A DNA stretch of 48,266 nucleotides, from the IMG/VR virus record IMGVR_UViG_3300009180_002437; one strand, written 5' to 3'. The notes beneath the pieces are model-generated. The model worked only from the letters and a program-made list of their open reading frames with translations. It was not told the origin of the DNA and did not search any database. The translations under genes and the position numbers were made by a program. Source of the DNA: a virus (taxonomy: Duplodnaviria > Heunggongvirae > Uroviricota > Caudoviricetes). Shown one piece after another: positions 5,114 to 46,272 of this stretch (within the stretch, counting starts at the first letter, position 1; the number at the start of each line of letters is the position of its first letter).

Positions 5114-5191
5114 GGTGAGGTGGCAGAGTGGTCCATTGCACTGGATTGCAAATCCGGAAAACCGTCGGTTCGACTCCGACCCTCACCTCCA
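5114..5191 (+). tRNA. tRNA-Cys (GCA)
   Basis: Cloverleaf, U73 discriminator, CCA. Confidence 0.92.
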
Positions 5192-6982: not shown

Positions 6983-8458
6983 ATGTATCATGGAATAATT
7001 TTATGTGGCAGTAGAAACGACCTTTCCGGTAGAAATATTGCTGGATATAGATTACGTACCGCTGCTGAAAAATTCGGATACAATAACTTAGTTATTGATT
7101 GTGCTACTGCAATGACGGAAGCAGAACTAGAACTAGTACTCAGCAACGTTATTACAGATAAAACATTATTTTTGGGCGTCAGCACAGTTTGGCTAGATCG
7201 TCCACATAATGGACATGCCGACATTGAATGGATTAACGAAGATTTTTTTAATAGAATTCGTGCCAAACATCCAAAATTAAAAATTGTCGCAGGTGGTAAT
7301 GGTATATTACGAATGCCAGGTGCTCGTGGTCTTTATGACGCAGCAGATTGGCATATTGGTGGATTTAGCGATGACAGTTTTCCTAGATTTCTAATGTTAT
7401 TAGAAGGCAAGACAGGACATCAGTTAAAGTATTTTATTGACAGCAATGGCAAAAAAACGGTGGATAGTAATAAATTCCATCATATCGCAAATCCAGATGA
7501 TATAGAAACTGTATTAAAACCAGAAGATAACTTTCTTAGTCATCAACCAATACCATTGGAAGCCAGCAGGGGGTGTATTTTTAGATGTGCGTACTGTACT
7601 CATCCGTTTCAAGGAGCAAAAGATTACGAATCTTACATGAGAACTCCTGAAAGCATAAGCAACGAACTTCGTCGCAATTATGAATTGTTTGGTACTACCA
7701 GATATTCATTGATGGATGATACATTCAATGATAGTGTGGAGAAGTTAAATAGACTTGAGCGAGCCATAGAATTAGCAAAGATACCCAACTTTGAATTTCA
7801 ATGTTATCTTAAACCAGAGTTACTAGTAACCAAACCCGAAATGATTCCGCAGTTGTTGCGAATGGGGCTAGTAGGTGGATTTGTTGGAATAGAAAGCATG
7901 AACAACCATGCTAGAAAAGTTATGAATAAAGGAATGAACATTGAGAAGGTTCTACATGCACTTAATATGTTAACTAGCGGTAGTAATCAAGTTAAATTAA
8001 GTGCAGGCTTTATTGTAGGACTGCCGGGCGACACAATAGATGATTCATTTAAAACAGCCGAGTTTTGTAAAAATAATCCAAACTTATTTAGAACCTGGCA
8101 GTTTAGTGCCCTTGGAATCTATACTTATAATGACATTGAAAAAGAAACAACATTAATGAGTGCCCTGGAACGTGATCCAGAAAAATATGGTTATACTGTT
8201 GATCGAAAGCCAGGCGAAAATAGTGCATGGAAGAATGAATTTATGACATCTGAGCAGGCATTTGATGCAGCATTCAAATTACTCAAAGACTCGGCCGGAG
8301 TTGTTCGGTGTGGTGGCTGGCTAATTGGCTCAGCGTGGCACAATGGAGAATCGGATTTCGATATTGAACATAAAACACGAGATCAATTAAAATTAGATGG
8401 TCGCGGTAGACAAGTAGCCCGAGACCGTGCTATACTTACAGTTAAGAAGTACACTTAG
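6983..8458 (+). CDS. B12-binding (class B-like) radical SAM enzyme
   Basis: N-terminal Rossmann-like domain with IVAGG; EASRGCIFRCAYC; DDTFN; GIES; GFIVGLPGD. Confidence 0.85.
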   Translation: MYHGIILCGSRNDLSGRNIAGYRLRTAAEKFGYNNLVIDCATAMTEAELELVLSNVITDKTLFLGVSTVWLDRPHNGHADIEWINEDFFNRIRAKHPKLKIVAGGNGILRMPGARGLYDAADWHIGGFSDDSFPRFLMLLEGKTGHQLKYFIDSNGKKTVDSNKFHHIANPDDIETVLKPEDNFLSHQPIPLEASRGCIFRCAYCTHPFQGAKDYESYMRTPESISNELRRNYELFGTTRYSLMDDTFNDSVEKLNRLERAIELAKIPNFEFQCYLKPELLVTKPEMIPQLLRMGLVGGFVGIESMNNHARKVMNKGMNIEKVLHALNMLTSGSNQVKLSAGFIVGLPGDTIDDSFKTAEFCKNNPNLFRTWQFSALGIYTYNDIEKETTLMSALERDPEKYGYTVDRKPGENSAWKNEFMTSEQAFDAAFKLLKDSAGVVRCGGWLIGSAWHNGESDFDIEHKTRDQLKLDGRGRQVARDRAILTVKKYT

Positions 8459-8642: not shown

Positions 8643-8735
8643 GAGTAGTAATGCAGCGGGGTTGGTCCTGCGACCAGCCTTGAAAACTGGGTTCTCTGTA
8701 ATGGGGATGGGGTTCGACTCCTCTGCTACTCGCCA
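8643..8735 (+). tRNA. tRNA-Ser (TGA)
   Basis: Long variable arm, G73, CCA. Confidence 0.9.
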
Positions 8736-8846: not shown

Positions 8847-8941
8847 GCTCCTGTAGTTTAGCGGTAAAACACCCGGCTTATACCCGGCATATGTCCCCAG
8901 ATTAGGGAGCGTCGGTGGTTCGAATCCACCCAGGAGTACCA
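8847..8941 (+). tRNA. tRNA-Ile (TAT) with long variable arm
   Basis: Anticodon loop CT-TAT-AC, ~24-nt variable region containing TCCC/GGGA stem, canonical T arm, A73, CCA. Confidence 0.8.
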
Positions 8942-9128: not shown

Positions 9129-9203
9129 ATCTCCCTAGTGTCAACGGCAGCACATCTGACTCCAAATCAGCTGGTGAGGGTTCAAATCCTTCGGGGGATG
9201 CCA
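9129..9203 (+). tRNA. tRNA-Trp (CCA)
   Basis: TCTGA-CTCCAAA-TCAGC; G73; CCA. Confidence 0.9.
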
Positions 9204-9939: not shown

Positions 9940-10393
9940 CATCACAAAAGGTCGTAAGAGTTATGACAGTACTATGGGTAACACCGTAGTGCCGTTCTTT
10001 AATCGTAATGTGACGCCTTACCCCACTGAGGCTGGTGGTACTAAGTTTGATCTAGTTCCAGTTACGCAACAAAAAGACATTATGATTAATAATGCCCGCT
10101 TGTTTGCCCAACAAGAATATGATAGAATAATGGAACTAGTAGCAGTATTAGAAAGACAAGCAGGAGATATTAAGCGTCGATTAGACATGACTGACTTAGT
10201 ACACAGTTGTAAATATGAGTTTCAATTAAGCATGGGTCATGTATATTGGGTAGTTAAAGATACACGCAATGATGTAACTATACTAACCGCCATGTCACCA
10301 ACCGATTGGACTAGTGGCGTTCCAGAAAATTATGAATATTTGATACAGGTTCGTTATCTAGGAGATCACTCTTGGATGGAAGTAAATGAGTAA
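9932..10393 (+). CDS. hypothetical protein (DUF2452-like)
   Basis: Coiled segment then YEFQLSMGHVYW...SPTDW pattern; family assignment from recall only. Confidence 0.6.
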   Translation: MSNITKGRKSYDSTMGNTVVPFFNRNVTPYPTEAGGTKFDLVPVTQQKDIMINNARLFAQQEYDRIMELVAVLERQAGDIKRRLDMTDLVHSCKYEFQLSMGHVYWVVKDTRNDVTILTAMSPTDWTSGVPENYEYLIQVRYLGDHSWMEVNE

Positions 10394-10394
10394 T

Positions 10395-10478
10395 GGGCTG
10401 GTGATGTAACGGTAGCCATGATGGTCTTAGAAGCCATTGCCGAAAGGCGTGAGAGTTCGAGTCTCTCCTAGCCCACCA
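10395..10478 (+). tRNA. tRNA-Leu (TAG)
   Basis: Long variable arm, A73, CCA. Confidence 0.92.
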
Positions 10479-10491
10479 AACACAGGATAGT

Positions 10492-11436
10492 ATGAAAGAA
10501 TTAATAGAGATTAAAAATTTAAACAATGAGATATTTGTCTATTGGATATTGACTGATTTTTGTAATCAGCATTGAACATACTGTCCCTCATCATTAAATC
10601 TTGGAGCATATGCAAATAGCCCTCTATTTCCGAGTGATAGTGACATTGATTTGTTTCTCGATAAGCTAATCGCTATACAACAACAGACTAAAAAGAGATT
10701 GGTGGTTAATATATCAGGTGGTGAACCTACCTTACATAATAAATTCGCAGACATAATTGAACGCCTACATGATTACGCTACTATTACCGTTACAACAAAT
10801 GGTGCTAGAAGCGTCAGCTGGTGGCAATCATTGTCCAAACAACCACAACTAGTAATTTTGTCATTGCATCCAGAATACTATGACTCCAAAAAATTAAAAA
10901 TCAATCAACTATGCGAATTTTTAAAAGACAATGGAGTGGATATACAGTTTAATCTTATGTGCCATCCGGGTATGTGGGATACGGTAATGGAAATAGTTAA
11001 TGACGTTGATGTTAGATTCAAACCATTTATCATTCCAAAAGTTATACAGGATCAAGACACGTTTAACAGAGATATGTATTCATATACATCCGAGCAATTA
11101 GATTTTATTAAAAGCTACCCCACCAAACTAGATTCAAATATAGCATGGGACGTTAAGGCAGTTTATTCGAATGGCGATATTAATCGTGCTGTTCCCAATA
11201 CAATTATGGCAGAAGGTTTACATTATTTTCATAACTGGCGGTGTGCTGCGGGTAGTGAAGGTATATGTGTATACGCCAACGGTGAAGTTAGAGCAGGAAT
11301 TTGTAATGCTAGACTATTAGGGACTATTTCAAATTTTAATTTGCTTGATGAGTATTTGACTTGTCCTAGACCTAGTTGTGTGTGTCCCGGGGATATTTTT
11401 CTTAACAAATATAATCCCAAGATAGTGTCAAAATAG
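10492..11436 (+). CDS. radical SAM protein with in-frame TGA at codon 28 (recoded or pseudogene)
   Basis: AGGA RBS, ATG 10492, W-I-L-T-D-F-C-N-Q-H-[TGA 10573-10575]-T-Y-C-P, in frame with the track ORF at 10651 (SGGEP, TTNG, C-terminal CAAG...C...CPRPSCVCPGD). Confidence 0.8.
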
Positions 11437-11465
11437 TTGACAGTAATAGTAAAGCACTATATAAT
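11437..11465 (+). promoter_or_regulatory. sigma70-type promoter
   Basis: TTGACA-N17-TATAAT. Confidence 0.85.
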
Positions 11466-11473
11466 AGTAACAT

Positions 11474-11558
11474 GCGAGAGTGGTGGAATTGGTATACACA
11501 CAAGACTTAAAATCTTGCGCCTTATGGATTGAGGGTTCAAGTCCCTCCTTTCGCACCA
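11474..11558 (+). tRNA. tRNA-Leu (TAA)
   Basis: CAAGA-CTTAAAA-TCTTG, long variable arm, CCA. Confidence 0.92.
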
Positions 11559-11560
11559 AA

Positions 11561-11634
11561 GCAGGGTTGGCATATTGGTTGTGTCCCAGCCTTCCAAGCT
11601 GGTCAAAGGAGTTCGATTCTCCTACCCTGCTCCA
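11561..11634 (+). tRNA. tRNA-Gly (TCC)
   Basis: CCAGC-CTTCCAA-GCTGG, U73, CCA. Confidence 0.92.
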
Positions 11635-11655
11635 TTTTATAAGAGTGCAACCATT

Positions 11656-11778
11656 ATGAAAGAATATATAATTGAATACCAAACAGAACCAGAAGCAGTT
11701 AGAGAATTTCATCATACATCAATTAAGTTTTTAAGTGGATTGATCGTATTGAGTTTTATACTTTACCTGTTTCATTAA
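11656..11778 (+). CDS. small membrane protein (40 aa)
   Basis: MKEYIIEYQTEPEAVREFHHTSIKFLSGLIVLSFILYLFH with a C-terminal hydrophobic helix; the longer track ORF overlaps tRNA-Gly. Confidence 0.5.
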   Translation: MKEYIIEYQTEPEAVREFHHTSIKFLSGLIVLSFILYLFH

Positions 11779-12997: not shown

Positions 12998-14533
12998 TTA
13001 TAAATTTAATATTGAATTGATATAATTTTGCACATAATCAACTGTGGCTTTTTTGTAATTTCTATCTACCCACATCATATATTCAGATCTATTCATTTTA
13101 AATTGTTCTTCTAATGGCTGAGGATCATCGAAATATTTTACCATGGAATCTGTCAAGAGAAAATCAAACCCGCCAAATTCTCCTCTGTTCACGGACCGCG
13201 CTGCTTCCGTTAATTCGTGAGCTAGAGATTCTGCTTCACTGTAATGTTTGATTGGACTAGATAAATTTTTCCATATTCGTGGTTGTTTTGGATCAGGCCA
13301 ATAATATCCGTATTTTGAGGCATTTAGTTGAAACTCACTCTTATATGGTAAATTATCATGTATCGGATTAACCAACAATAATGGAAAGATGCGAACCCCA
13401 TCCACTAGATTGTTGGGATCCAAAATCCATTGCTTAGTTTCCATATATGATTCATAGGTTTCGTGCGGTAACCCAGTTATTACGCTAATGCTAATCTTGA
13501 CGTCATCGCCCCATAATTCATTTTTTAATTCTTGCAAAAATTTTTTAGATTTAACCCCACCAAGTCCTTTACCTATCGAACTTGCAGCCCGATCATGAAA
13601 TGATTCTACTCCAAAATGACAACCACGCAGCCCCATTTCTTTTAACAACCTAACTTGATCTCTATGTGCATGTAATAGATCAAGTCTGAGATAACATGCA
13701 AAATAAATTTTAAATGGCAACGAAGTAAAAATTTTATGTAGATGTGCTAATTTTTCATTACTATCATTGAACGTATCATCACTTATCAGATATTTATAAA
13801 TTCCAAAATTTTCATAATTGTATATTAACTCTTCGGTCAGTACATCATAATCTTTAATAAAATCTAATTTTTTCTTACCATTCAATGGATAGGCACAAAA
13901 CTTGCATTTAAAAATACAACCCCTACTCACTTCTAGCGTAATTGATTCGCCAGGATCAACGCAATCTTCTGGTTGGTATATAATTTGGCAACGACAAAAG
14001 TTAAATGTTTTATCTGATGCAGTTACATCATATATTAACGTGTTATCTTGTTTTCTTGTGGGTACAGGTATTGTAGTTTTATCACGTATAGATACTATGT
14101 AGTCGGTAAATTGTTTTTCACTATATCCTAAAAATACAGCGTCTACATTTTTAACACTCTCCAATAAATCTACACCGTTTGGCCCACCAAATAGTATTTG
14201 AATATTGTTGTTTATATGTTTGGCTTGACTAATAATATGTGAAACAAGATTTCCTATAACCTTAAAACGAACCCTAAGCCAAAACGATGTGCTAAAAGCA
14301 ATTGCCACAGTATCCGAGCCAATAAATTTGTTGCATGCCTGTGATAGTTCTTCCGAAGTAAATGCTGTAACTAATTGTATTACTTGACAAGTAAATCCTA
14401 CTTTTCTTATTTCAGTTGCTACTCGATATGCACCGATAGATTTACTTGGAGAACGTCTCCCCAGTTTTGGATGACTTGGTTGAAAAACTATATCATCGGC
14501 TGTGGTATCAGCAAAAATTATAATATTAGCCAT
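12998..14533 (-). CDS. B12-binding (class B-like) radical SAM enzyme
   Basis: ILFGGP; EVSRGCIFKCKFC; DDTFND; GVESF; ITGLPHE. Paralog of 6983-8458. Confidence 0.85.
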   Translation of the reverse strand: MANIIIFADTTADDIVFQPSHPKLGRRSPSKSIGAYRVATEIRKVGFTCQVIQLVTAFTSEELSQACNKFIGSDTVAIAFSTSFWLRVRFKVIGNLVSHIISQAKHINNNIQILFGGPNGVDLLESVKNVDAVFLGYSEKQFTDYIVSIRDKTTIPVPTRKQDNTLIYDVTASDKTFNFCRCQIIYQPEDCVDPGESITLEVSRGCIFKCKFCAYPLNGKKKLDFIKDYDVLTEELIYNYENFGIYKYLISDDTFNDSNEKLAHLHKIFTSLPFKIYFACYLRLDLLHAHRDQVRLLKEMGLRGCHFGVESFHDRAASSIGKGLGGVKSKKFLQELKNELWGDDVKISISVITGLPHETYESYMETKQWILDPNNLVDGVRIFPLLLVNPIHDNLPYKSEFQLNASKYGYYWPDPKQPRIWKNLSSPIKHYSEAESLAHELTEAARSVNRGEFGGFDFLLTDSMVKYFDDPQPLEEQFKMNRSEYMMWVDRNYKKATVDYVQNYINSILNL

Positions 14534-17451: not shown

Positions 17452-18072
17452 ATGATTATAACGTGCGGCCCCGTTGGTAACCAACGTACCCTTAAATTAA
17501 AACTTCCAGAAGAAAGAACTAAGATAGCAGTCCTTATCAGTGGCGGCATAGATAGTGCTATACTGTATTACTTAATGTTGCAGGAAAATAAAGACACAGG
17601 TTATAGGCATGACATACGGCCTATATCTATTATGCGTTCAGAAGGATCTGAATACTTTAGTAAGCTAGTAGTGGCAAACATGAATGAGAAATTTAACTTA
17701 ATCAAGCAGGATGCTATTATAGTTGGAAATCCTTCACTACCAGATGATCGGCAAGTCAAGTCAGGTGTATTACACGCATATGATCTTGGGTTTGACCTAA
17801 CGTATTGTGGCGTAATTGAACAACAGCCTGCACATATGGTAGGATGGACTCCTCCCGAAGCTAAAGAAACTAAAAGATTTAAAACACCACTTAAAGATCT
17901 AAACAAAACACATATAATAGATCTAGTCATACAATGCAAACAAGAAGACCTATTTTACATTACACATACTTGTAACAAGTTTAAAGTAGGTCGTTGCCAT
18001 AAATGCAACGGGTGCAACGAGCGAGCCTGGGGATTTTCACAGTTAGGATTAACTGATCCTGGTACTATATAA
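17452..18072 (+). CDS. QueC-like PP-loop ATP pyrophosphatase
   Basis: ISGGIDSA, PLKDLNKTHII, THTC...CHKCNGCNER Zn site. Confidence 0.75.
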   Translation: MIITCGPVGNQRTLKLKLPEERTKIAVLISGGIDSAILYYLMLQENKDTGYRHDIRPISIMRSEGSEYFSKLVVANMNEKFNLIKQDAIIVGNPSLPDDRQVKSGVLHAYDLGFDLTYCGVIEQQPAHMVGWTPPEAKETKRFKTPLKDLNKTHIIDLVIQCKQEDLFYITHTCNKFKVGRCHKCNGCNERAWGFSQLGLTDPGTI

Positions 18073-22444: not shown

Positions 22445-23401
22445 ATGCCGATATTTTCACACAACAATCATCTAAAATTTGGATGGGGCGATGGTGTTTA
22501 TAATTTTAACGATAAAGACAAACAACTATGGGTAGAATTTGGGCAAGCAGATTACATTCCAACATCTTTCAAAACTGAGTGCATTAGGTCGGCTAGATTG
22601 ATCGGTGAGGCTGCTGACAAACCAATTCTATTATTCTTATCTGGTGGGGTAGACTCGGAAGTAACGGCAAGATCATTCTTGGAAGCCGGGGTACCATTTG
22701 AAGTAGCTACCACAAATATCACACATGATGGTAAAATTATAAATGAACATGACACCGTATATGCGATGTCATTTATTAAAAAATATAACCTTACAGTACA
22801 CACTATAGACATTAATTTTATTGATTTGATAACTAGATTAAAAGAGATACGGTTGACAAATAATCCCGCTGAGCCATACTATAAAGTTTCCATGGTGTTT
22901 CTCAATATAATTATGATGATCGAACAATTTTGTGACGATTATTATTGTGTTACTGGCAATGGAGACCTGGTTATCGATGCATATAGAAAGTACAATCAGC
23001 CAGGCCCAATTCAATACGGAGTATACGCAGGAAAATCTTTCTCAGGTTCGGCATTATCGGCATATGAATTATCAGCTAGGGAATCAATTAACCTTACCAG
23101 ATTCTTTTGCTATACCCCGGAATTGTTACTAGCTTGGTTATTAGATGCTGATATACAACATTGGATCAAATATGAAAAGGCGCTAATGGGGCCACATGGA
23201 TGGATGAACATACATTCAATTAAATCATTTATACTATATAAAATTTGGCCTGATATGGAAATTAGACCAAAATTCATGGGATTTGAAAATTTACCAGGTT
23301 ATAATGAATTGTGCAACAATGATTTTTATAATGATGATAAATCATATATGGTCATTACGATAGATAATTTATTAGATATGTTGTTGCCAAAAGAAATTTA
23401 A
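22445..23401 (+). CDS. PP-loop (asparagine-synthase C-domain-like) protein
   Basis: LFLSGGVDSE; paralog of 35384-36301. Confidence 0.7.
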   Translation: MPIFSHNNHLKFGWGDGVYNFNDKDKQLWVEFGQADYIPTSFKTECIRSARLIGEAADKPILLFLSGGVDSEVTARSFLEAGVPFEVATTNITHDGKIINEHDTVYAMSFIKKYNLTVHTIDINFIDLITRLKEIRLTNNPAEPYYKVSMVFLNIIMMIEQFCDDYYCVTGNGDLVIDAYRKYNQPGPIQYGVYAGKSFSGSALSAYELSARESINLTRFFCYTPELLLAWLLDADIQHWIKYEKALMGPHGWMNIHSIKSFILYKIWPDMEIRPKFMGFENLPGYNELCNNDFYNDDKSYMVITIDNLLDMLLPKEI

Positions 23402-25205: not shown

Positions 25206-26291
25206 ATGTCAGAATCTCGACAAGTAACAACAGTCCAAGCCCGCCGCTCATTGCTCAAGGCTTTTAAACATCAACGCCCACTGTTCTTGTGGGGACCTCC
25301 TGGTATCGGTAAATCAGAATTGGTAGCCGATATCACCGCAGAATTGGGCGGGTATATGATTGACCTACGCTTAGGTCAAATGGAACCAACAGATATTCGT
25401 GGTATCCCGTTTTATAATCGCGACAATGGTAAAATGGATTGGGCTCCGCCAATTGATTTGCCCGACGAGGAATTAGCAGAACAATATCCTATCATCGTAT
25501 TGTTCTTGGACGAGATGAACTCTGCTCCGCCTAGCGTACAATCAGCTGCATATCAGTTGATTCTTAATCGACGTGTGGGCAAATATAAACTGCCAAAGAA
25601 TGTTGTTATGGTAGCTGCTGGTAACCGCGAAAGTGACAAAGGTGTTACTTACCGCATGCCTACTCCGTTGTCAAATCGTTTCCTGCATCAAGAATTAAAG
25701 GTGGATTTCGATTCCTGGCAAGATTGGGCAGTTATGCATAACATCCATAAAGATGTTATTGGTTTCCTAGGTTCCAACAAACAGGATCTGCATGAGCGTG
25801 ATATTAAATCAGCTAGCCGTGCTTTCCCTACTCCACGTAGCTGGTTCTTTGTAAGTGAACTATTGTCAGATGAAGATGGTGATGAAGAAACATTGCTTAA
25901 CCTGATTTCAGGTACAGTTGGGGAAGGACTTGCTATTAAGTTTAACGCTCACCGTAAGATTTCTGGTCGTATGCCCAAGCCTGAAGATATCTTGTCAGGT
26001 AAAGTTACAACCCTTGATGTTAAGGAAATTTCAGCTATGTACTCATTGGTTATTTCTATGTGTTACGAGTTGAAAGATGCAATGGAGAAGAAAGTAAGTG
26101 ACAAAGAGTTTCACACAATGTCCGATCACTTCTTTGCCTACATGATGAAGAACTTTGAACAAGAACTGGTTATTATGGGTGCTCGTATAGCTCTTACCGT
26201 ATATGACTTACCATTCCAACCAACTAAGTTGAAGAATTTCGACGAGTTCCATAAGAAATACGGAAGGTACATTCTTAACGCTTCAGCTTAG
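25206..26291 (+). CDS. MoxR-like AAA+ ATPase
   Basis: GPPGIGKS, LFLDEMNSA, AAGNR, PLSNRF, FPTPRSW. Confidence 0.9.
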   Translation: MSESRQVTTVQARRSLLKAFKHQRPLFLWGPPGIGKSELVADITAELGGYMIDLRLGQMEPTDIRGIPFYNRDNGKMDWAPPIDLPDEELAEQYPIIVLFLDEMNSAPPSVQSAAYQLILNRRVGKYKLPKNVVMVAAGNRESDKGVTYRMPTPLSNRFLHQELKVDFDSWQDWAVMHNIHKDVIGFLGSNKQDLHERDIKSASRAFPTPRSWFFVSELLSDEDGDEETLLNLISGTVGEGLAIKFNAHRKISGRMPKPEDILSGKVTTLDVKEISAMYSLVISMCYELKDAMEKKVSDKEFHTMSDHFFAYMMKNFEQELVIMGARIALTVYDLPFQPTKLKNFDEFHKKYGRYILNASA

Positions 26292-28890: not shown

Positions 28891-30159
28891 ATGGCTACGT
28901 CAGGAACTACCACAAATAAACAAGAAAGTGACAAATTTAAAGACCTATTGGGACCTATGGATCCCAAATTGGATTCACTAGTCCGTGAAAAACTTATTAC
29001 AGCACGGGTTGGACTACTATTACGTGCCAGCTTTTTTGGCAACCTAGCTACTCGCCTTAAACTGGTGAACGCAGATGAATGGCTTACGACTGCTGCTACA
29101 GATGGGCGTAACTTTTACTACAATAGCCGCTTCATTGATATGTTGCGTCCCAAGGAAATTGAATTCTTATTTGGGCACGAAGTGTTGCATTGTGTATACG
29201 ATCACATGGGTCGGCGAGCTGACCGTGATCCACAATTATGGAACATTGCAGATGACTATTGTGTAAACTCTGACTTGATCAAACACCGTGTAGGCGAAAA
29301 GATCACCACAGTACCCTGCTTATACGATCCCAAGTACGATGGTATGTGTGCCGAAGAAGTATATGATATCTTATACAAGAACGTTAAGAAGATTAATCTG
29401 CAAGACCTAATTGATCAATTACTGGACGATCACTTAGATGGCGAAGGTTCCGGTGACGGTTCTGGTGAAGATGGTAAGGGTCCGAAGAAACTGACCCAAG
29501 CTGAGAAAGACGCTATCCGCGATGAAATCAAGGAAGCTGTGTTATCTGCGGCCGCAGCCACAAACGATGCAGGTAATATTCCAGCAGGTATTCGACGGAT
29601 GATCCAGGATTTAACTGAACCCAAGATGAATTGGCGTGAGCTAATCCGTATGCAACTTGAGTCTACTATTAAATCGGATTTTACTTGGATGCGCACTAGC
29701 CGTAAAGGTTGGGATATGGATGCAGTAATGCCGGGTATGAAACTAGATCCTATGATTGATATTGCTATTAGCATTGACGCATCTGGATCAATCAGTCATA
29801 AAATGCTTAAAGACTTCTTGGGTGAAGTACAGGGCATTATGGATTCGTTCCCCGCATTTAGAATTCATATTGTAACCTTTGACACTGAAACTTACAATCC
29901 ACAACAGTACAACAGCGATAACCTGGATACTATTTGTGACTATGAGATTAAAGGCGGAGGTGGTACAGATTTTGATTGCGTATTTAATTATTTCAAACGT
30001 GAAGAAATTGAACCCAAGCGTCATATTATGTTTACAGATGGATACCCCTGTGGTAGTTGGGGTGATGAATTGTACTGTGATACTGTGTTTATTATTCATG
30101 GTAACGACAGCATTGAGCCCCCATTTGGGCAATGGGCATATTACGAGGAGGATGCATAA
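28891..30159 (+). CDS. DUF2201-type metallopeptidase + VWA domain protein (MoxR partner)
   Basis: TAATDG...HEVLH...WNIADD, Gly-rich linker, MIDAS-like DASGS and GGGGTDF. Confidence 0.85.
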   Translation: MATSGTTTNKQESDKFKDLLGPMDPKLDSLVREKLITARVGLLLRASFFGNLATRLKLVNADEWLTTAATDGRNFYYNSRFIDMLRPKEIEFLFGHEVLHCVYDHMGRRADRDPQLWNIADDYCVNSDLIKHRVGEKITTVPCLYDPKYDGMCAEEVYDILYKNVKKINLQDLIDQLLDDHLDGEGSGDGSGEDGKGPKKLTQAEKDAIRDEIKEAVLSAAAATNDAGNIPAGIRRMIQDLTEPKMNWRELIRMQLESTIKSDFTWMRTSRKGWDMDAVMPGMKLDPMIDIAISIDASGSISHKMLKDFLGEVQGIMDSFPAFRIHIVTFDTETYNPQQYNSDNLDTICDYEIKGGGGTDFDCVFNYFKREEIEPKRHIMFTDGYPCGSWGDELYCDTVFIIHGNDSIEPPFGQWAYYEEDA

Positions 30160-34572: not shown

Positions 34573-35406
34573 ATGCCTAAAATAAATTCATTCTTATACT
34601 ACATACTCTATCCAATACATGCTATAGCATGGATAGGCACAATATTATTTCTTACATTCTTTGATTTTACATGGACTAACTTTTGGCAATTGCTAATTGG
34701 TTGGATCATAATAGAGGGGCTTGGCGTGTCGGTAGTGCTGCATAGATATGTTAGCCATAAAGCTGTTGAGCTACGTCCAGGATTAAAACCAATCTTACTA
34801 TGGATCAGTTGTTTGTCACTACAGGGCAGTCCGCTTGGTTGGGCAGCAGTACACAGAGGTAGTCATCATAGATACAGTGACACAGAAAAAGATGCCCACA
34901 CCCCTGCCAAAGGCTGGTGGTATGCGTGGCACGTATGGTTACATGACTGGGTCAAATACTTTAATCCCAAGTACGCAATAGATTTGGTTAGAGATCCCAT
35001 GCACGTATGGATTGCAAAACATTATAACTATATTATTCTTGCAACGTATGTTATAATAGGTTTAATTAGTTGGGAATTGTTGCTATTTGGTTTCATTGTA
35101 CCAGCGGCACTGAGCTTATACATGGAAAGTAACATTAATATATTTTGCCACAGTCCAGGCTATGGTTATAGAAATTTTGATACAAAAGATCAAAGTCGTA
35201 ATGTATCATTACTAGCTTGGATTACATGGGGTCAGGGATGGCACAACAATCATCATGAAAAAGCAAGTAGCTATGATTTCGGTTCCAGCGTAAGTGGCAA
35301 ATCAAGTGAGTGGGATTTTAGTTTAATCTTTTTACCATTGATTGCAACTAAAGAAAGCAGACAGAAAATTTGGCGAGAGCGTAATGATAAACTTCACTCA
35401 CAATAA
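34573..35406 (+). CDS. fatty-acid (delta-9 acyl-CoA/OLE1-type) desaturase
   Basis: His boxes HRYVSH, HRGSHH, HNNHH; transmembrane segments; QGSPLGWAAVH. Confidence 0.92.
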   Translation: MPKINSFLYYILYPIHAIAWIGTILFLTFFDFTWTNFWQLLIGWIIIEGLGVSVVLHRYVSHKAVELRPGLKPILLWISCLSLQGSPLGWAAVHRGSHHRYSDTEKDAHTPAKGWWYAWHVWLHDWVKYFNPKYAIDLVRDPMHVWIAKHYNYIILATYVIIGLISWELLLFGFIVPAALSLYMESNINIFCHSPGYGYRNFDTKDQSRNVSLLAWITWGQGWHNNHHEKASSYDFGSSVSGKSSEWDFSLIFLPLIATKESRQKIWRERNDKLHSQ

Positions 35407-36301
35407 TCATCTTGTATACAGCATAGGCGGGCGTGATTATGACTATAGAACAAATTCAATAGAAAAGTATTCAGTAAGAGTTGGTGCAATAGATCCAGAA
35501 CGATATGCTGCTAGCTCATATGCAGAAGAATTACATCGTACTGCTCGGCTAGTAAGAAGTGATTTTGGCAAGGATCTTGTATTATTTTTATCAGGTGGCA
35601 CTGACAGCGAAATAGTACTAAGAAATTTCGTAGCAACAGGATTCAAACCACGCTGTGTTACTCTTAGATTCAAAAATGACTACAATGCCAGTGATTTAGT
35701 CGAAGCGCAAGCAATAGCCGATGAGTTGGGCGTTAAGCTAGATATTATTGATATAGATATTGAGGATTTTTACTATTCAGGTGAAGCTAAAGAGTTTGGC
35801 GAGCAAATACAATGTACTCAGATAACTTATATTATGGTTTACAGAAGTGTATTAAAACTAGGTGCTCCGGCAGTAATGGGCGGAGAAGCATTACTTACTA
35901 GACAAGTAAATCTTAATGATAGTTATTGGTATTATACACTTAGAGAAAATGAAGATGCTAGTGCTATGCGGTTCTCTAATAAATTTGGAGTGCCATTGGT
36001 GAATGAATGGTTTAGCTATACGCCTGAGTTGCTATTATATTGGTTAGAAAATCCTTTAGTAAAAGAACTTGTGTCTAATCGTTACAATTACAAGCTAAAC
36101 TCTGCCAGCAGCAAGAACTCAATTTTATCCACACTATACAAAACTAGACCTAAATCAAAAACACATGGATTTGAAAAGCTACTAGACTTTAATCAAGAAG
36201 TATACAAAGAATTAGGAAGGACTCAAATCAAAAGGCTAGAAGCCAATGTAGATGGCATACATTATGATACAGTAATACAGCAATTAAAGGGATTGGCATG
36301 A
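35384..36301 (+). CDS. PP-loop (asparagine-synthase C-domain-like) protein
   Basis: LFLSGGTDSE; start placed at MINFTHNNHL by analogy with the paralog MPIFSHNNHL. Confidence 0.7.
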   Translation: MINFTHNNHLVYSIGGRDYDYRTNSIEKYSVRVGAIDPERYAASSYAEELHRTARLVRSDFGKDLVLFLSGGTDSEIVLRNFVATGFKPRCVTLRFKNDYNASDLVEAQAIADELGVKLDIIDIDIEDFYYSGEAKEFGEQIQCTQITYIMVYRSVLKLGAPAVMGGEALLTRQVNLNDSYWYYTLRENEDASAMRFSNKFGVPLVNEWFSYTPELLLYWLENPLVKELVSNRYNYKLNSASSKNSILSTLYKTRPKSKTHGFEKLLDFNQEVYKELGRTQIKRLEANVDGIHYDTVIQQLKGLA

Positions 36302-40228: not shown

Positions 40229-41512
40229 ATGACACAAGAACAAAAAATTATACCTATTATTTCAGAAAGTCCCACGCTGTGCGCTGTACCCTGGATGCAT
40301 CTTGCATTTGAACCTAGTGGTAAAGTACTGCCATGCTGCTTAACTGCGTCACATAAAGTATTTTCAGGTGATCTTAAAACAATGTCACTAGAAGAAATAT
40401 GGAACAGTGATCAACAAAAATCCATTCGAAAGGATATGATCGAAGGTCGAGAGCCAAAGATATGTTCCAAATGTTTTGACCGTGAACGTGTAACTGGCGA
40501 GAGTGCCAGAACGTACCATCGTAGAGATTTTCAAGACGTGCTAGATGCTATTCCCGATATTACTGAACCCGATGGTACTTGCACTACAATGGACATGAAG
40601 TATTGGGATTTTCGTTTCAGTAACTTATGTAATTTTAAATGCCGTAGCTGCGGACCAGCATATAGTTCAGCCTGGGTTCCCGACGCCACTAAACTAGGGT
40701 ACGCGGATCAGGACAAAGTTTGGAGTATTGACTCAGTTGGTGAGCAAACTAACTATGATTTTCTAATCGAACAGATAGATAATGTACGTAGGATCTACTT
40801 TGCTGGTGGCGAGCCATTACTAATGCCCGAACACTGGCAAATATTGGATATGTTGGTCGCCAAGGAACGTTTTGACGTAAAACTAAGCTACAACACTAAT
40901 TGCTCCACACTATCGTACGGTAAGAAAAATATTGTAGATTATTGGAGCAAGTGGCAGTTTGGTAAATTGGAAATATGGCCCAGTATAGATGAGGTTGGTG
41001 AACGTGCTGAACTAATCCGTGCAGGAACAGTATGGCGCAAAGTAGAAGAAAACTTAAAGACTCTTTCTACGTTGGATAACATTATACTTAGACCCGGACT
41101 CACTATCGGTGCATTTAATGTATTCCGATTACCGGAAATAATTACACATTTGGTGGACATTGGTGTCGTTAAGCGTGATCCTAAACGTAGGAGCCTAAAC
41201 TATAACAACTTCTTTATTAACCTGTTGGAAAGCCCCAAGTATTATCATGTATGTATATTACCGGACGACTTTAAACATGAAATTATTCTTAAGCTGGAAA
41301 ACTTTGTAGAAGAATTTAATGAAAAATACAGCACCAACATCAGTAAATTATTTGAACACATTTTGTTCGAATTAACTAAACCCTTTGACGTTGCTGCTGC
41401 AAAACACTTTGTAAGACAGACTAAAAAATTAGATGACTTGCGCGGAGAAAACACGTATGAGGTAATACCAGAATTACGTTCCGTGAAGGTAGCTTTGAAT
41501 GTGGAAGAATGA
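40229..41512 (+). CDS. radical SAM protein with N-terminal twitch/SPASM-like domain
   Basis: CAVPWMH...PCC...CSKC; SNLCNFKCRSC; FAGGEP; YNTN. Confidence 0.88.
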   Translation: MTQEQKIIPIISESPTLCAVPWMHLAFEPSGKVLPCCLTASHKVFSGDLKTMSLEEIWNSDQQKSIRKDMIEGREPKICSKCFDRERVTGESARTYHRRDFQDVLDAIPDITEPDGTCTTMDMKYWDFRFSNLCNFKCRSCGPAYSSAWVPDATKLGYADQDKVWSIDSVGEQTNYDFLIEQIDNVRRIYFAGGEPLLMPEHWQILDMLVAKERFDVKLSYNTNCSTLSYGKKNIVDYWSKWQFGKLEIWPSIDEVGERAELIRAGTVWRKVEENLKTLSTLDNIILRPGLTIGAFNVFRLPEIITHLVDIGVVKRDPKRRSLNYNNFFINLLESPKYYHVCILPDDFKHEIILKLENFVEEFNEKYSTNISKLFEHILFELTKPFDVAAAKHFVRQTKKLDDLRGENTYEVIPELRSVKVALNVEE

Positions 41513-43236: not shown

Positions 43237-44181
43237 ATGAACAAAATAATTAGAATACAACAACCCGATACCGCACCCATGCATCTTACATGGATGATTA
43301 ATAATATATGCACTAACCATTGCAGCTATTGCCCTCCAAACTTACACGAAGGTAAAAATCACTATTATGAGTGGGAGAACGCTCAACGTTTTTTTAAAAT
43401 GCTGTTTGAAAGATACCCAAGGATTCATTGTAGTGTTAGTGGTGGAGAGCCCAGTCTAAGTCCATTCTTTCCAGATATCTGTAAATTGTTTTACGAAGCA
43501 GGGCATACTATAGGTCTAACATCAAATGCAGCTAAACCAGCTAGCTATTGGCGAGACATTGCGCCTTACTTGGATTATATTAGTTTCTCATGGCATCCTG
43601 AATTTCCTGATAAAAACTTTTTAGAAAAAGTGGTGGCGGCAGCTAGACAAATTTTAGTCACAGTTCGTGTAATGATGTTGCCAAGTAAGTGGGAAGAAAG
43701 CATAGCTATGTTCAATGAAGCATCTGCACGTTGGGAATTTATTACCGAACCAGTAAAAATTATACCATATAACGATACTGACCCTAATGCTTCCGTATAT
43801 ACAGAAGAACAGTTAGCATGGTTTAATGATAATCATGGGAATCAAAAAGAACGTAGCTTAAGACATCTTATGCCAATTATGCCGGCGAATATAATGGCAA
43901 ACTATCACTTTGATGATGGAACTGTAGTACATGATGCTAACGCTAGCGATTGGGTTAATCGTGGATTTACTAACTTCAATGGATACAAATGTGAGATTGG
44001 ATTAAAATCATTATTTGTACGACCCAATGGAATAATATATCTAGGTAATTGCTTAGTTGGAGGCAAGATTGGTAACATTAACAAACCTGAAAAAATTATG
44101 TGGCCAACTGATAATATTAAATGCAACATTGACATATGTAGTTGTTCCAGTGATGTAAATATAAACAAGTGGATTGAATGA
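43237..44181 (+). CDS. radical SAM protein with C-terminal Cys cluster
   Basis: NICTNHCSYCP, SGGEP, TSN, CEIG...GNC...CNIDICSCSSD. Confidence 0.88.
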   Translation: MNKIIRIQQPDTAPMHLTWMINNICTNHCSYCPPNLHEGKNHYYEWENAQRFFKMLFERYPRIHCSVSGGEPSLSPFFPDICKLFYEAGHTIGLTSNAAKPASYWRDIAPYLDYISFSWHPEFPDKNFLEKVVAAARQILVTVRVMMLPSKWEESIAMFNEASARWEFITEPVKIIPYNDTDPNASVYTEEQLAWFNDNHGNQKERSLRHLMPIMPANIMANYHFDDGTVVHDANASDWVNRGFTNFNGYKCEIGLKSLFVRPNGIIYLGNCLVGGKIGNINKPEKIMWPTDNIKCNIDICSCSSDVNINKWIE

Positions 44182-45134
44182 ACAAAATAATTAGAATAGA
44201 GCAACCAAGTAATGCTCCGCTGAATCTAACATGGATCATTAATAATATATGCACAAACCATTGCTCATACTGTGCTACAAACTTACACATGGGAAAAAAT
44301 CATAATTACGAATGGGCAAATGCACTCAGATTTTTCGAAATGTTGTTTGAAAAATATCCTAGAATACATTGTAGTGTTAGTGGCGGTGAACCAAGTGTTA
44401 GTCCATTCTTTCCTGAAATTTGTAAACTATTTTACGAGCGTGGACATACTATTGGTGTAACAACTAATCTAGCAAAACCTGTGAGATACTGGAAAGAATT
44501 GGCAGCATATTTAAATTACGCATCAATATCATGGCATTCGCAATTTGTTGATATAAACTTCTTAGAAAAAACACTAGCTGTTGCGGATCTAATACCAACT
44601 AATGTTCGTATATTAATGCTGCCTGGACAATGGGATCAATGTGTGGCAGCATACGATAAGTTATCTAAAATAGATAAATTTACAACAGAACCAGTGATGA
44701 TTCAAGATAAAAGAGGCATGGATACAAGTGCTCATGTGTATAATATTCCACAACAAATATGGTTTGAGCAAAACAGACCGTCTAACAAAGATAAGATGCT
44801 GCATTTGAATCGTAAAGATGTTCCTGGATTAGGTTTAGGTGCTAAGTATTTCTTTCAGGATGGCACGAGTGTAGAAAATGCTAACACCACTGATTTAATA
44901 AACAGTGGGTTGACACACTTTAAAGATTATGACTGTGAAATCGGGTTAAAATCATTGTATATTGACTACAATGGAACAGTATTTGCTGGCAATTGCTGTG
45001 TTGGAGGTCCATTGGGCTCAATCAATGATCCAGAGAGCATAACATGGGCAACACAGCCTATCAAATGTACTGTAAATTTATGCCATTGTGACACTGATGT
45101 TTCTATCAATAAAAGGATTGGTAATGTTTTGTAA
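44178..45134 (+). CDS. radical SAM protein, tandem paralog of 43237-44181
   Basis: NICTNHCSYCA; long identical blocks (YPRIHCSVSGGEPS.SPFFP.ICKLFYE.GHTIG). Confidence 0.88.
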   Translation: MNKIIRIEQPSNAPLNLTWIINNICTNHCSYCATNLHMGKNHNYEWANALRFFEMLFEKYPRIHCSVSGGEPSVSPFFPEICKLFYERGHTIGVTTNLAKPVRYWKELAAYLNYASISWHSQFVDINFLEKTLAVADLIPTNVRILMLPGQWDQCVAAYDKLSKIDKFTTEPVMIQDKRGMDTSAHVYNIPQQIWFEQNRPSNKDKMLHLNRKDVPGLGLGAKYFFQDGTSVENANTTDLINSGLTHFKDYDCEIGLKSLYIDYNGTVFAGNCCVGGPLGSINDPESITWATQPIKCTVNLCHCDTDVSINKRIGNVL

Positions 45135-46272
45135 ATTTTTATCCAATACTTATCACTTTACTTATGACAATGTAAAACCATGCTGTTGGATTAAACACAC
45201 TCCTGAAACTCAAATTAATATTCTTGATTCAGATATTACTGGAAAACTAAAAACTATAAGACAAGTAGATGATTGGATACCAGAATGCAGTTACTGCCAT
45301 GATTTAGAGTTAGCAGGTACAAAATCTCCAAGAAATGCTGCAGAACGAGAAGGAATATTCAATAACGATGATGTATTAGGAGATGCTATTAAAGTTGAAT
45401 TACAATTAGATGATGATTGCAATGCCGCATGCCTAATGTGCGGAACTTGGAATAGCACTACTTGGCAACAGTACGAAACAAAAACTCTTAAGAGTAAAAT
45501 GCCATCGTATCGTTGGAAAACTACTATCGAAGAAAGAATTAATGCTGTTAATAATATAATTGACTTTGATAAAACAAAGCAAGTTCATTTTTTTGGCGGA
45601 GAACCATTTAATAGTGATACACAACTGAAAATGTTGCGGTTGATAAATTATCCTGAGAATGTCAATCTTGTGTATACAACAAATGGCAGTGTATTTCCAT
45701 GTGCCGAAACATGGGCACTATGGAAAAATTTTAAAAATGTTCACATAGGAATTAGTATAGATGGAGTAGGAGAACAATTTAACTATCTAAGATGGCCGTT
45801 ACAGTGGCATCAAGTTGAAAATAATTTGATAAAATATATTAACGCAAACTATAAAAATATTACGCTGAATACTAGTTTTACAGCAACGCCATTTAACATA
45901 TGGTATATAGACAAATATTCTGAATGGGCAACACAATTTTCAAAAAAATATAATTCTAATAGTACAAAACTAACAAGCTGGTTCAGTAATCCTCAACCAG
46001 TAGTAGGTGATCATATAGATATGACTTGCATTCCGCCAAAGCTACAGAATGTCGTCAAATCTAAGTACGGCGCAGACAGTAGAATTGTTAAAATAATAGG
46101 AGAATTTGATTTACAAAAATGCTTGCATATGATTAACTATGCACAATTTCATGATAGACATAGAAAATTAAATTGGAAAGAAACTTTTCCAGAAATTGTT
46201 GAGTTTTTTGATATGGATAAACTTTCCCCAGTATCAAAAAAATTCTGGGAGATAAAACGTGAATTACCCTGA
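45124..46272 (+). CDS. radical SAM protein with N-terminal twitch-like domain
   Basis: MFCK...PCC...CSYC; DDDCNAACLMC; FFGGEP; YTTNG; SIDG. Confidence 0.85.
   Translation: MFCKFLSNTYHFTYDNVKPCCWIKHTPETQINILDSDITGKLKTIRQVDDWIPECSYCHDLELAGTKSPRNAAEREGIFNNDDVLGDAIKVELQLDDDCNAACLMCGTWNSTTWQQYETKTLKSKMPSYRWKTTIEERINAVNNIIDFDKTKQVHFFGGEPFNSDTQLKMLRLINYPENVNLVYTTNGSVFPCAETWALWKNFKNVHIGISIDGVGEQFNYLRWPLQWHQVENNLIKYINANYKNITLNTSFTATPFNIWYIDKYSEWATQFSKKYNSNSTKLTSWFSNPQPVVGDHIDMTCIPPKLQNVVKSKYGADSRIVKIIGEFDLQKCLHMINYAQFHDRHRKLNWKETFPEIVEFFDMDKLSPVSKKFWEIKRELP

Follow-up and report, generated by a model that had tools for sequence, protein, structure and literature searches.

Radical SAM enzymes of the twitch/SPASM class, such as MoaA (1tv7/2fb2), BlsE (7vob), anSMEcpe (4k37), EpeE (8ai1) and SkfB (6efn), combine an N-terminal CxxxCxxC motif, a GGEP motif and a partial TIM-barrel core with a C-terminal domain that is rich in cysteines, and carry an auxiliary Fe-S cluster. 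Bacterial selenoprotein genes, of which fdhF of E. coli is an example, carry a UGA codon together with a SECIS element, and radical SAM proteins of the ArsS and TrsS types are counted among selenoproteins; in ArsS-type proteins the selenocysteine lies near the C-terminus, outside the SAM-cluster motif. Here we analyse a gene of a Caudoviricetes phage (IMG/VR record IMGVR_UViG_3300009180_002437) in which an in-frame TGA takes the place of the middle cysteine of the CxxxCxxC motif itself. The initial annotation of this gene had offered three readings of the codon, namely a phage selenoprotein with a selenocysteine-ligated cluster, a regulated read-through, and a single TGY-to-TGA change or sequencing error. 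Coordinates refer throughout to the window, by which we mean the whole stretch of 48,266 nucleotides that was analysed.

The interrupted radical SAM gene

The gene occupies positions 10492 to 11436 on the plus strand (314 codons and a stop) and is cut in this contig by the TGA at codon 28 (10573-10575). An AGGA ribosome-binding site (10484-10487) stands 4 nt ahead of ATG 10492 and is also kept in one of the relatives (L001). The reading frame from this ATG gives MKELIEIKNLNNEIFVYWILTDFCNQH-TGA-TYCP, that is F-C-N-Q-H-TGA-T-Y-C-P, and the cluster-binding codons lie between 10561 and 10584, comprising C24 (TGT, 10561-10563), the TGA at codon 28 and C31 (TGT, 10582-10584). Past the TGA the frame is open for 286 codons and ends at TAG 11434-11436, retaining the GGEP SAM-binding motif (residues 76-79; 10717-10728) and four C-terminal cysteines, C251, C271, C291 and C296 (11242-11379). 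The mechanical list of open reading frames places the first start of the gene at TTG 10651 and yields a fragment of 261 amino acids. When the TGA is translated as Cys, the product matches the Pfam Radical_SAM model PF04055 with 45.6 bits against a cut-off of 29.5 (E 1.2e-11). Two paralogs within the window, at 43237-44178 and 44178-45134, read C-T-N-H-C-S-Y-C at the motif. The description given in the initial annotation was thus accurate in its ribosome-binding site and start, in the motif of the paralogs, in the loss of the N-terminus from the ORF list and in the roughly 287 further codons with GGEP and a C-terminal Cys cluster; its placement of the TGA at the middle Cys is likewise borne out, the family profile aligning this motif with the CxxxCxxC of radical SAM enzymes whose structures are solved.

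The gene is flanked directly by two tRNA genes on the same strand, tRNA-Leu(UAG) upstream (10395-10478) and tRNA-Leu(UAA) downstream (11474-11558), and it therefore lies inside the tRNA array of the phage. A tRNA-Leu also precedes the gene in the relative L001.

Assignment of the enzyme

Comparison of the single protein with the PDB by phmmer gave no match, so that a family profile was needed; this profile matched MoaA (E 1.4e-6, residues 20-116), with CNQxCxYC placed on the cluster motif. An AlphaFold2 model built from the family alignment (pLDDT 93.2, pTM 0.91) retrieved MoaA, BlsE, anSMEcpe, EpeE and SkfB in Foldseek with a probability of 1.00, TM values between 0.50 and 0.57 and identities of 14-18%. 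The radical SAM core is assigned on the match to PF04055 above its cut-off, the invariant GGEP and the confident fold match. The C-terminal part of the product is not matched by the Pfam SPASM model; C251, C271, C291 and C296 nonetheless probably ligate an auxiliary Fe-S cluster in a domain of the twitch/SPASM class, as the conserved sequence and the fold matches, which span the full length, suggest. No NCBIfam model came near its cut-off (the best reached 39.5 bits against 200), and these models therefore name neither a subfamily nor a substrate.

A family search over 5.8 billion proteins yielded 83 clusters of 34-92% identity, with proteins of about 310-325 amino acids carrying PF04055 and contigs of up to 353 kb; no member attains a curated NCBIfam model. 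The gene is accordingly a member of an unnamed, metagenome-only and largely giant-phage radical SAM family that probably binds a second Fe-S cluster. Among deposited phage genomes, a DNA search matched only the flanking tRNA-Leu genes, and tblastn found only the radical SAM genes of Campylobacter phages (CP21, CPt10 group).

Conservation of codon 28 and selective constraints

The alignment of 83 family sequences is invariant at C24, C28, C31, G76, G77, E78, P79, C251, C271, C291 and C296. Cys28 is present in all 82 of the other family proteins, a count made at the protein level, where a copy with the TGA would appear truncated by the gene caller. Because of this truncation we examined the sole short relative in the set (P0024, 280 amino acids) as a candidate for a further interrupted gene, which we rejected: the frame upstream of the called start is open from an ATG and contains CNQHCSYC with TGT at this codon, the start having been mis-called. 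The true frame of that gene (L016:121-1074) begins at ATG 121, encodes 316 amino acids and contains the CxxxCxxC; the public call starts too late.

Three distinct relatives were also compared at the nucleotide level (L001, whose contig is identical with L010; L011; and L012); they share 82-84% protein and 85% DNA identity with the gene of the window, and all carry TGT at codon 28. Against its relatives the gene of the window has a dN/dS of 0.13-0.14, with dS near 0.6. By this ratio it evolves under purifying selection and shows no decay; no other lesion is present in it. The motif, broken by the TGA in the window's own sequence, is intact in all relatives and in the otherwise identical contigs described below. 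The TGA does not recur at the homologous column in any of the 82 proteins, the three distinct relatives or the three identical contigs.

The base at position 10575 in other copies of the phage

Three independent contigs from public data (L013, 1,633 nt; L014, 1,373 nt; L015, 1,068 nt) align to the window without gaps and with one mismatch each, which in every case is 10575 A>T, turning the TGA into TGT. The same replacement is the sole difference in unique sequence between the window and the Logan contigs of four runs (X1-X3 of 2017 and X7 of 2022) over positions 10200-11700; the runs are filed under four coded studies, of which the three from 2017 perhaps belong to one sampling campaign, and the copies compared are assembled contigs, in which rare variants get lost. 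A further variant in this region, 11601 G>A, stems from 64-nt tRNA-Gly contigs that probably belong to other organisms and is irrelevant to the gene. The exact 314-amino-acid protein with Cys28 is, in addition, a called gene on seven other contigs (three shorter than 2 kb, one of 10-20 kb and three of 50-200 kb).

The runs that best match the 1.5-kb stretch reach 0.95-0.97 of its sampled words and never 1.00. A query of 91 bases on the A allele comprises five sampled words, too few for more than a weak test, and at most one of them was found in any indexed run; because X1-X3 equal the window except at 10575, the four unmatched words must be those that span the A. This outcome is consistent with absence of the A allele from the contigs of the indexed runs.

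Taking these comparisons together with the selenocysteine analyses given below, the A is a singleton, Cys28 is invariant in the family, no SECIS was found downstream of the TGA, and the record has no tRNA-Sec, SelA or SelB. We consider it probable that the A at position 10575 is private to one assembled contig and not representative of the phage, having arisen either by a mistake in the consensus or base calling or from a minority variant chosen by the assembler. The preference for an error or a minority variant over a majority allele of the source sample is one that we infer. Under this explanation the true gene would carry TGT (Cys28), its product would be an ordinary radical SAM enzyme with three cluster cysteines and a C-terminal domain for an auxiliary cluster, and recoding would not be involved at codon 28. 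Of the three readings first proposed for the codon, the single change or sequencing error is the one that holds, the otherwise identical contigs of other runs having TGT. The initial annotation had also named the finding that would refute selenocysteine, namely Cys in all close homologs and a singleton allele lacking a SECIS, and this is the pattern that we observed; the finding is therefore an ordinary one.

Alternative explanations of the TGA

Substitution errors are rare in the consensus of short-read metagenomes, and for this reason a true variant at 10575 is still plausible. Such a variant, standing as it does in the deposited contig, would be a genuine and very recent nonsense allele that dominates the source sample and knocks out the radical SAM gene. 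Translation would end after 27 residues, and a product restarted at TTG 10651 would be devoid of the cluster motif, leaving the enzyme without activity. Such a loss might be tolerable to a phage with several more genes of this type; the window has at least eight in all, among them two paralogs of the interrupted one. Against this stand the TGT of the same strain in four other runs and on seven contigs, as well as the purifying selection acting on a gene that is otherwise free of lesions. On balance a nonsense allele ranks second in likelihood, being possible but rather doubtful.

The TGA might also be decoded. As a selenocysteine codon it would place the selenium ligand on the [4Fe-4S] cluster and would need SelA, SelB, SelD and tRNA-Sec from the host; its exact position on a conserved Cys codon and the intact frame downstream agree with such a role, and NCBIfam models for radical SAM selenoproteins exist (ArsS, TIGR04167; TrsS, NF045646), even though their matches to this product are weak and far under the cut-off. 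The folding of the sequence 3' of the codon argues otherwise. The 60 nt from the TGA fold with -6.1 kcal/mol (z -0.40; 66 of 200 shuffled sequences were equally stable), the 101-nt fold at the TGA has a z of 0.00, the sequences of the relatives fold alike, and a permissive Rfam scan of 10540-10720 returned no match to a SECIS family; the earlier view, formed by eye, that no convincing SECIS is present is thus upheld by shuffled folding and by the Rfam scan. In the 59.7-kb record, which represents about 17% of the genome, no tRNA-Sec scored above the cut-off (the best match had 38 bits against 47) and neither SelA nor SelB was found, in agreement with the previous statement that the window contains no tRNA-Sec; a UCA anticodon is absent from the 25 called tRNAs and from one uncalled tRNA-like gene. 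That last RNA (8647-8730) was considered as a UGA decoder and rejected, as its loop is CUUGAAA and its anticodon UGA reads the Ser codon UCA; the other places with tRNA-Sec matches below threshold that were checked are ordinary tRNAs called by ARAGORN. Since a SECIS, the tRNA-Sec, SelA and SelB in the record and a TGA in the relatives or identical contigs are all missing, the selenoprotein reading is unsupported, and we regard it as extremely improbable. The chance that the A is a true allele which host machinery decodes as selenocysteine (or as Cys by a near-cognate tRNA), giving a phage radical SAM enzyme whose [4Fe-4S] cluster is ligated by Sec, is in our opinion minute. Read-through of another kind, whether programmed, by reassignment of the codon to Trp or Gly, or by near-cognate decoding, could draw on the tRNA-Cys(GCA) (5114-5191) and tRNA-Trp(CCA) (9129-9203) that the phage encodes, and UGA is the leakiest of the stop codons. 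However, TGA closes 22 of the 56 long frames (TAA closes 27 and TAG 7), and among adjacent in-frame segment pairs the TGA at 10573-10575 is the only one to interrupt a recognised gene. In this phage TGA serves as a normal stop, and the pattern expected of a reassigned code is not seen. Neither a suppressor tRNA nor a structure downstream of the TGA was seen, the allele occurs in this contig alone, and a Trp at residue 28 would be unable to ligate the cluster. The regulated read-through of the initial annotation thus finds no support either, and read-through in any of these forms appears very improbable. Selenocysteine and programmed read-through, taken jointly, are highly unlikely.

The phage and its gene content

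The source IMG/VR record has 59,697 bases and a CheckV completeness of 17%, from which a phage of roughly 350 kb can be estimated. The stretch occurs in runs of freshwater or lake metagenomes. RNA genes of the window comprise 25 tRNAs and a permuted tmRNA. A tRNA-like gene at 8643-8733 (plus strand) was missed both by ARAGORN and by the Rfam tRNA model at its gathering threshold; it has a long variable arm, G73, CCA and the loop CUUGAAA, scores 30.5 bits against 47 with the tRNA-Sec model, and is probably the tRNA-Ser(UGA) of the phage, whose D-arm or acceptor geometry would be unusual. Another uncommon RNA is the 95-nt tRNA at 8847-8941 (plus strand), in which a class-II body, with a stem-forming variable arm of 21 nt and A73, is combined with the Ile anticodon UAU (AUA).

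The window is unusually dense in radical SAM genes: in addition to the interrupted one, its 48 kb contain at least seven, three of them within the tRNA array. Genes of this type are found at 6983-8458 (+), 12998-14533 (-), 10492-11436 (+) and at 40229-41512, 43237-44178, 44178-45134 and 45088-46272 (+). In the gene at 40229-41512 (plus strand, 427 amino acids), Pfam places SPASM (18-82) N-terminal to Radical_SAM (130-233), which reverses the usual order. Three QueC/PP-loop-like proteins are also encoded (17452-18072, 22445-23401 and 35342-36301), together with ThyX, TauD, an Asp/Arg hydroxylase-like protein, an FkbM methyltransferase, a carbamoyltransferase and an epimerase. At 25206-26291 and 28891-30159 (plus strand), genes for a MoxR-type AAA ATPase and for a putative DUF2201 metallopeptidase with a VWA-like domain stand close together, an arrangement typical of MoxR-VWA systems.

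Comparison with known systems

A radical SAM selenoprotein of a phage with selenocysteine as a cluster ligand would have been the first of its kind; what the data show in its place is a one-base singleton of a single metagenome contig. The correct annotation of the locus is a full-length radical SAM protein of 314 amino acids with Cys28, or the same with a flag for a possible error or null allele, and not a 261-amino-acid fragment or a case of recoding. Where an in-frame TGA is met at a Cys codon of a metagenome contig, sibling assemblies should be compared before recoding is proposed.

The gene resembles bacterial selenoprotein genes such as fdhF, and those for ArsS and TrsS, in having a TGA at a position where its relatives have Cys and in the open frame that follows. 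It differs from them in that a SECIS is lacking, that tRNA-Sec, SelA and SelB are absent from the record, that Cys and Sec do not alternate among its relatives, and that the TGA is missing from identical copies of the same phage. The radical SAM genes of Campylobacter phages are 23-33% identical to it, most records being matched over the N-terminal third only. With the twitch/SPASM enzymes the phage family shares the N-terminal CxxxCxxC, the GGEP motif, the partial TIM-barrel core and the Cys-rich C-terminal domain, which in the phage family has four invariant cysteines, whereas its identity to these enzymes is only 14-18%, it has no match to Pfam SPASM, and its members come from metagenomic contigs only, largely of the size of giant phages.
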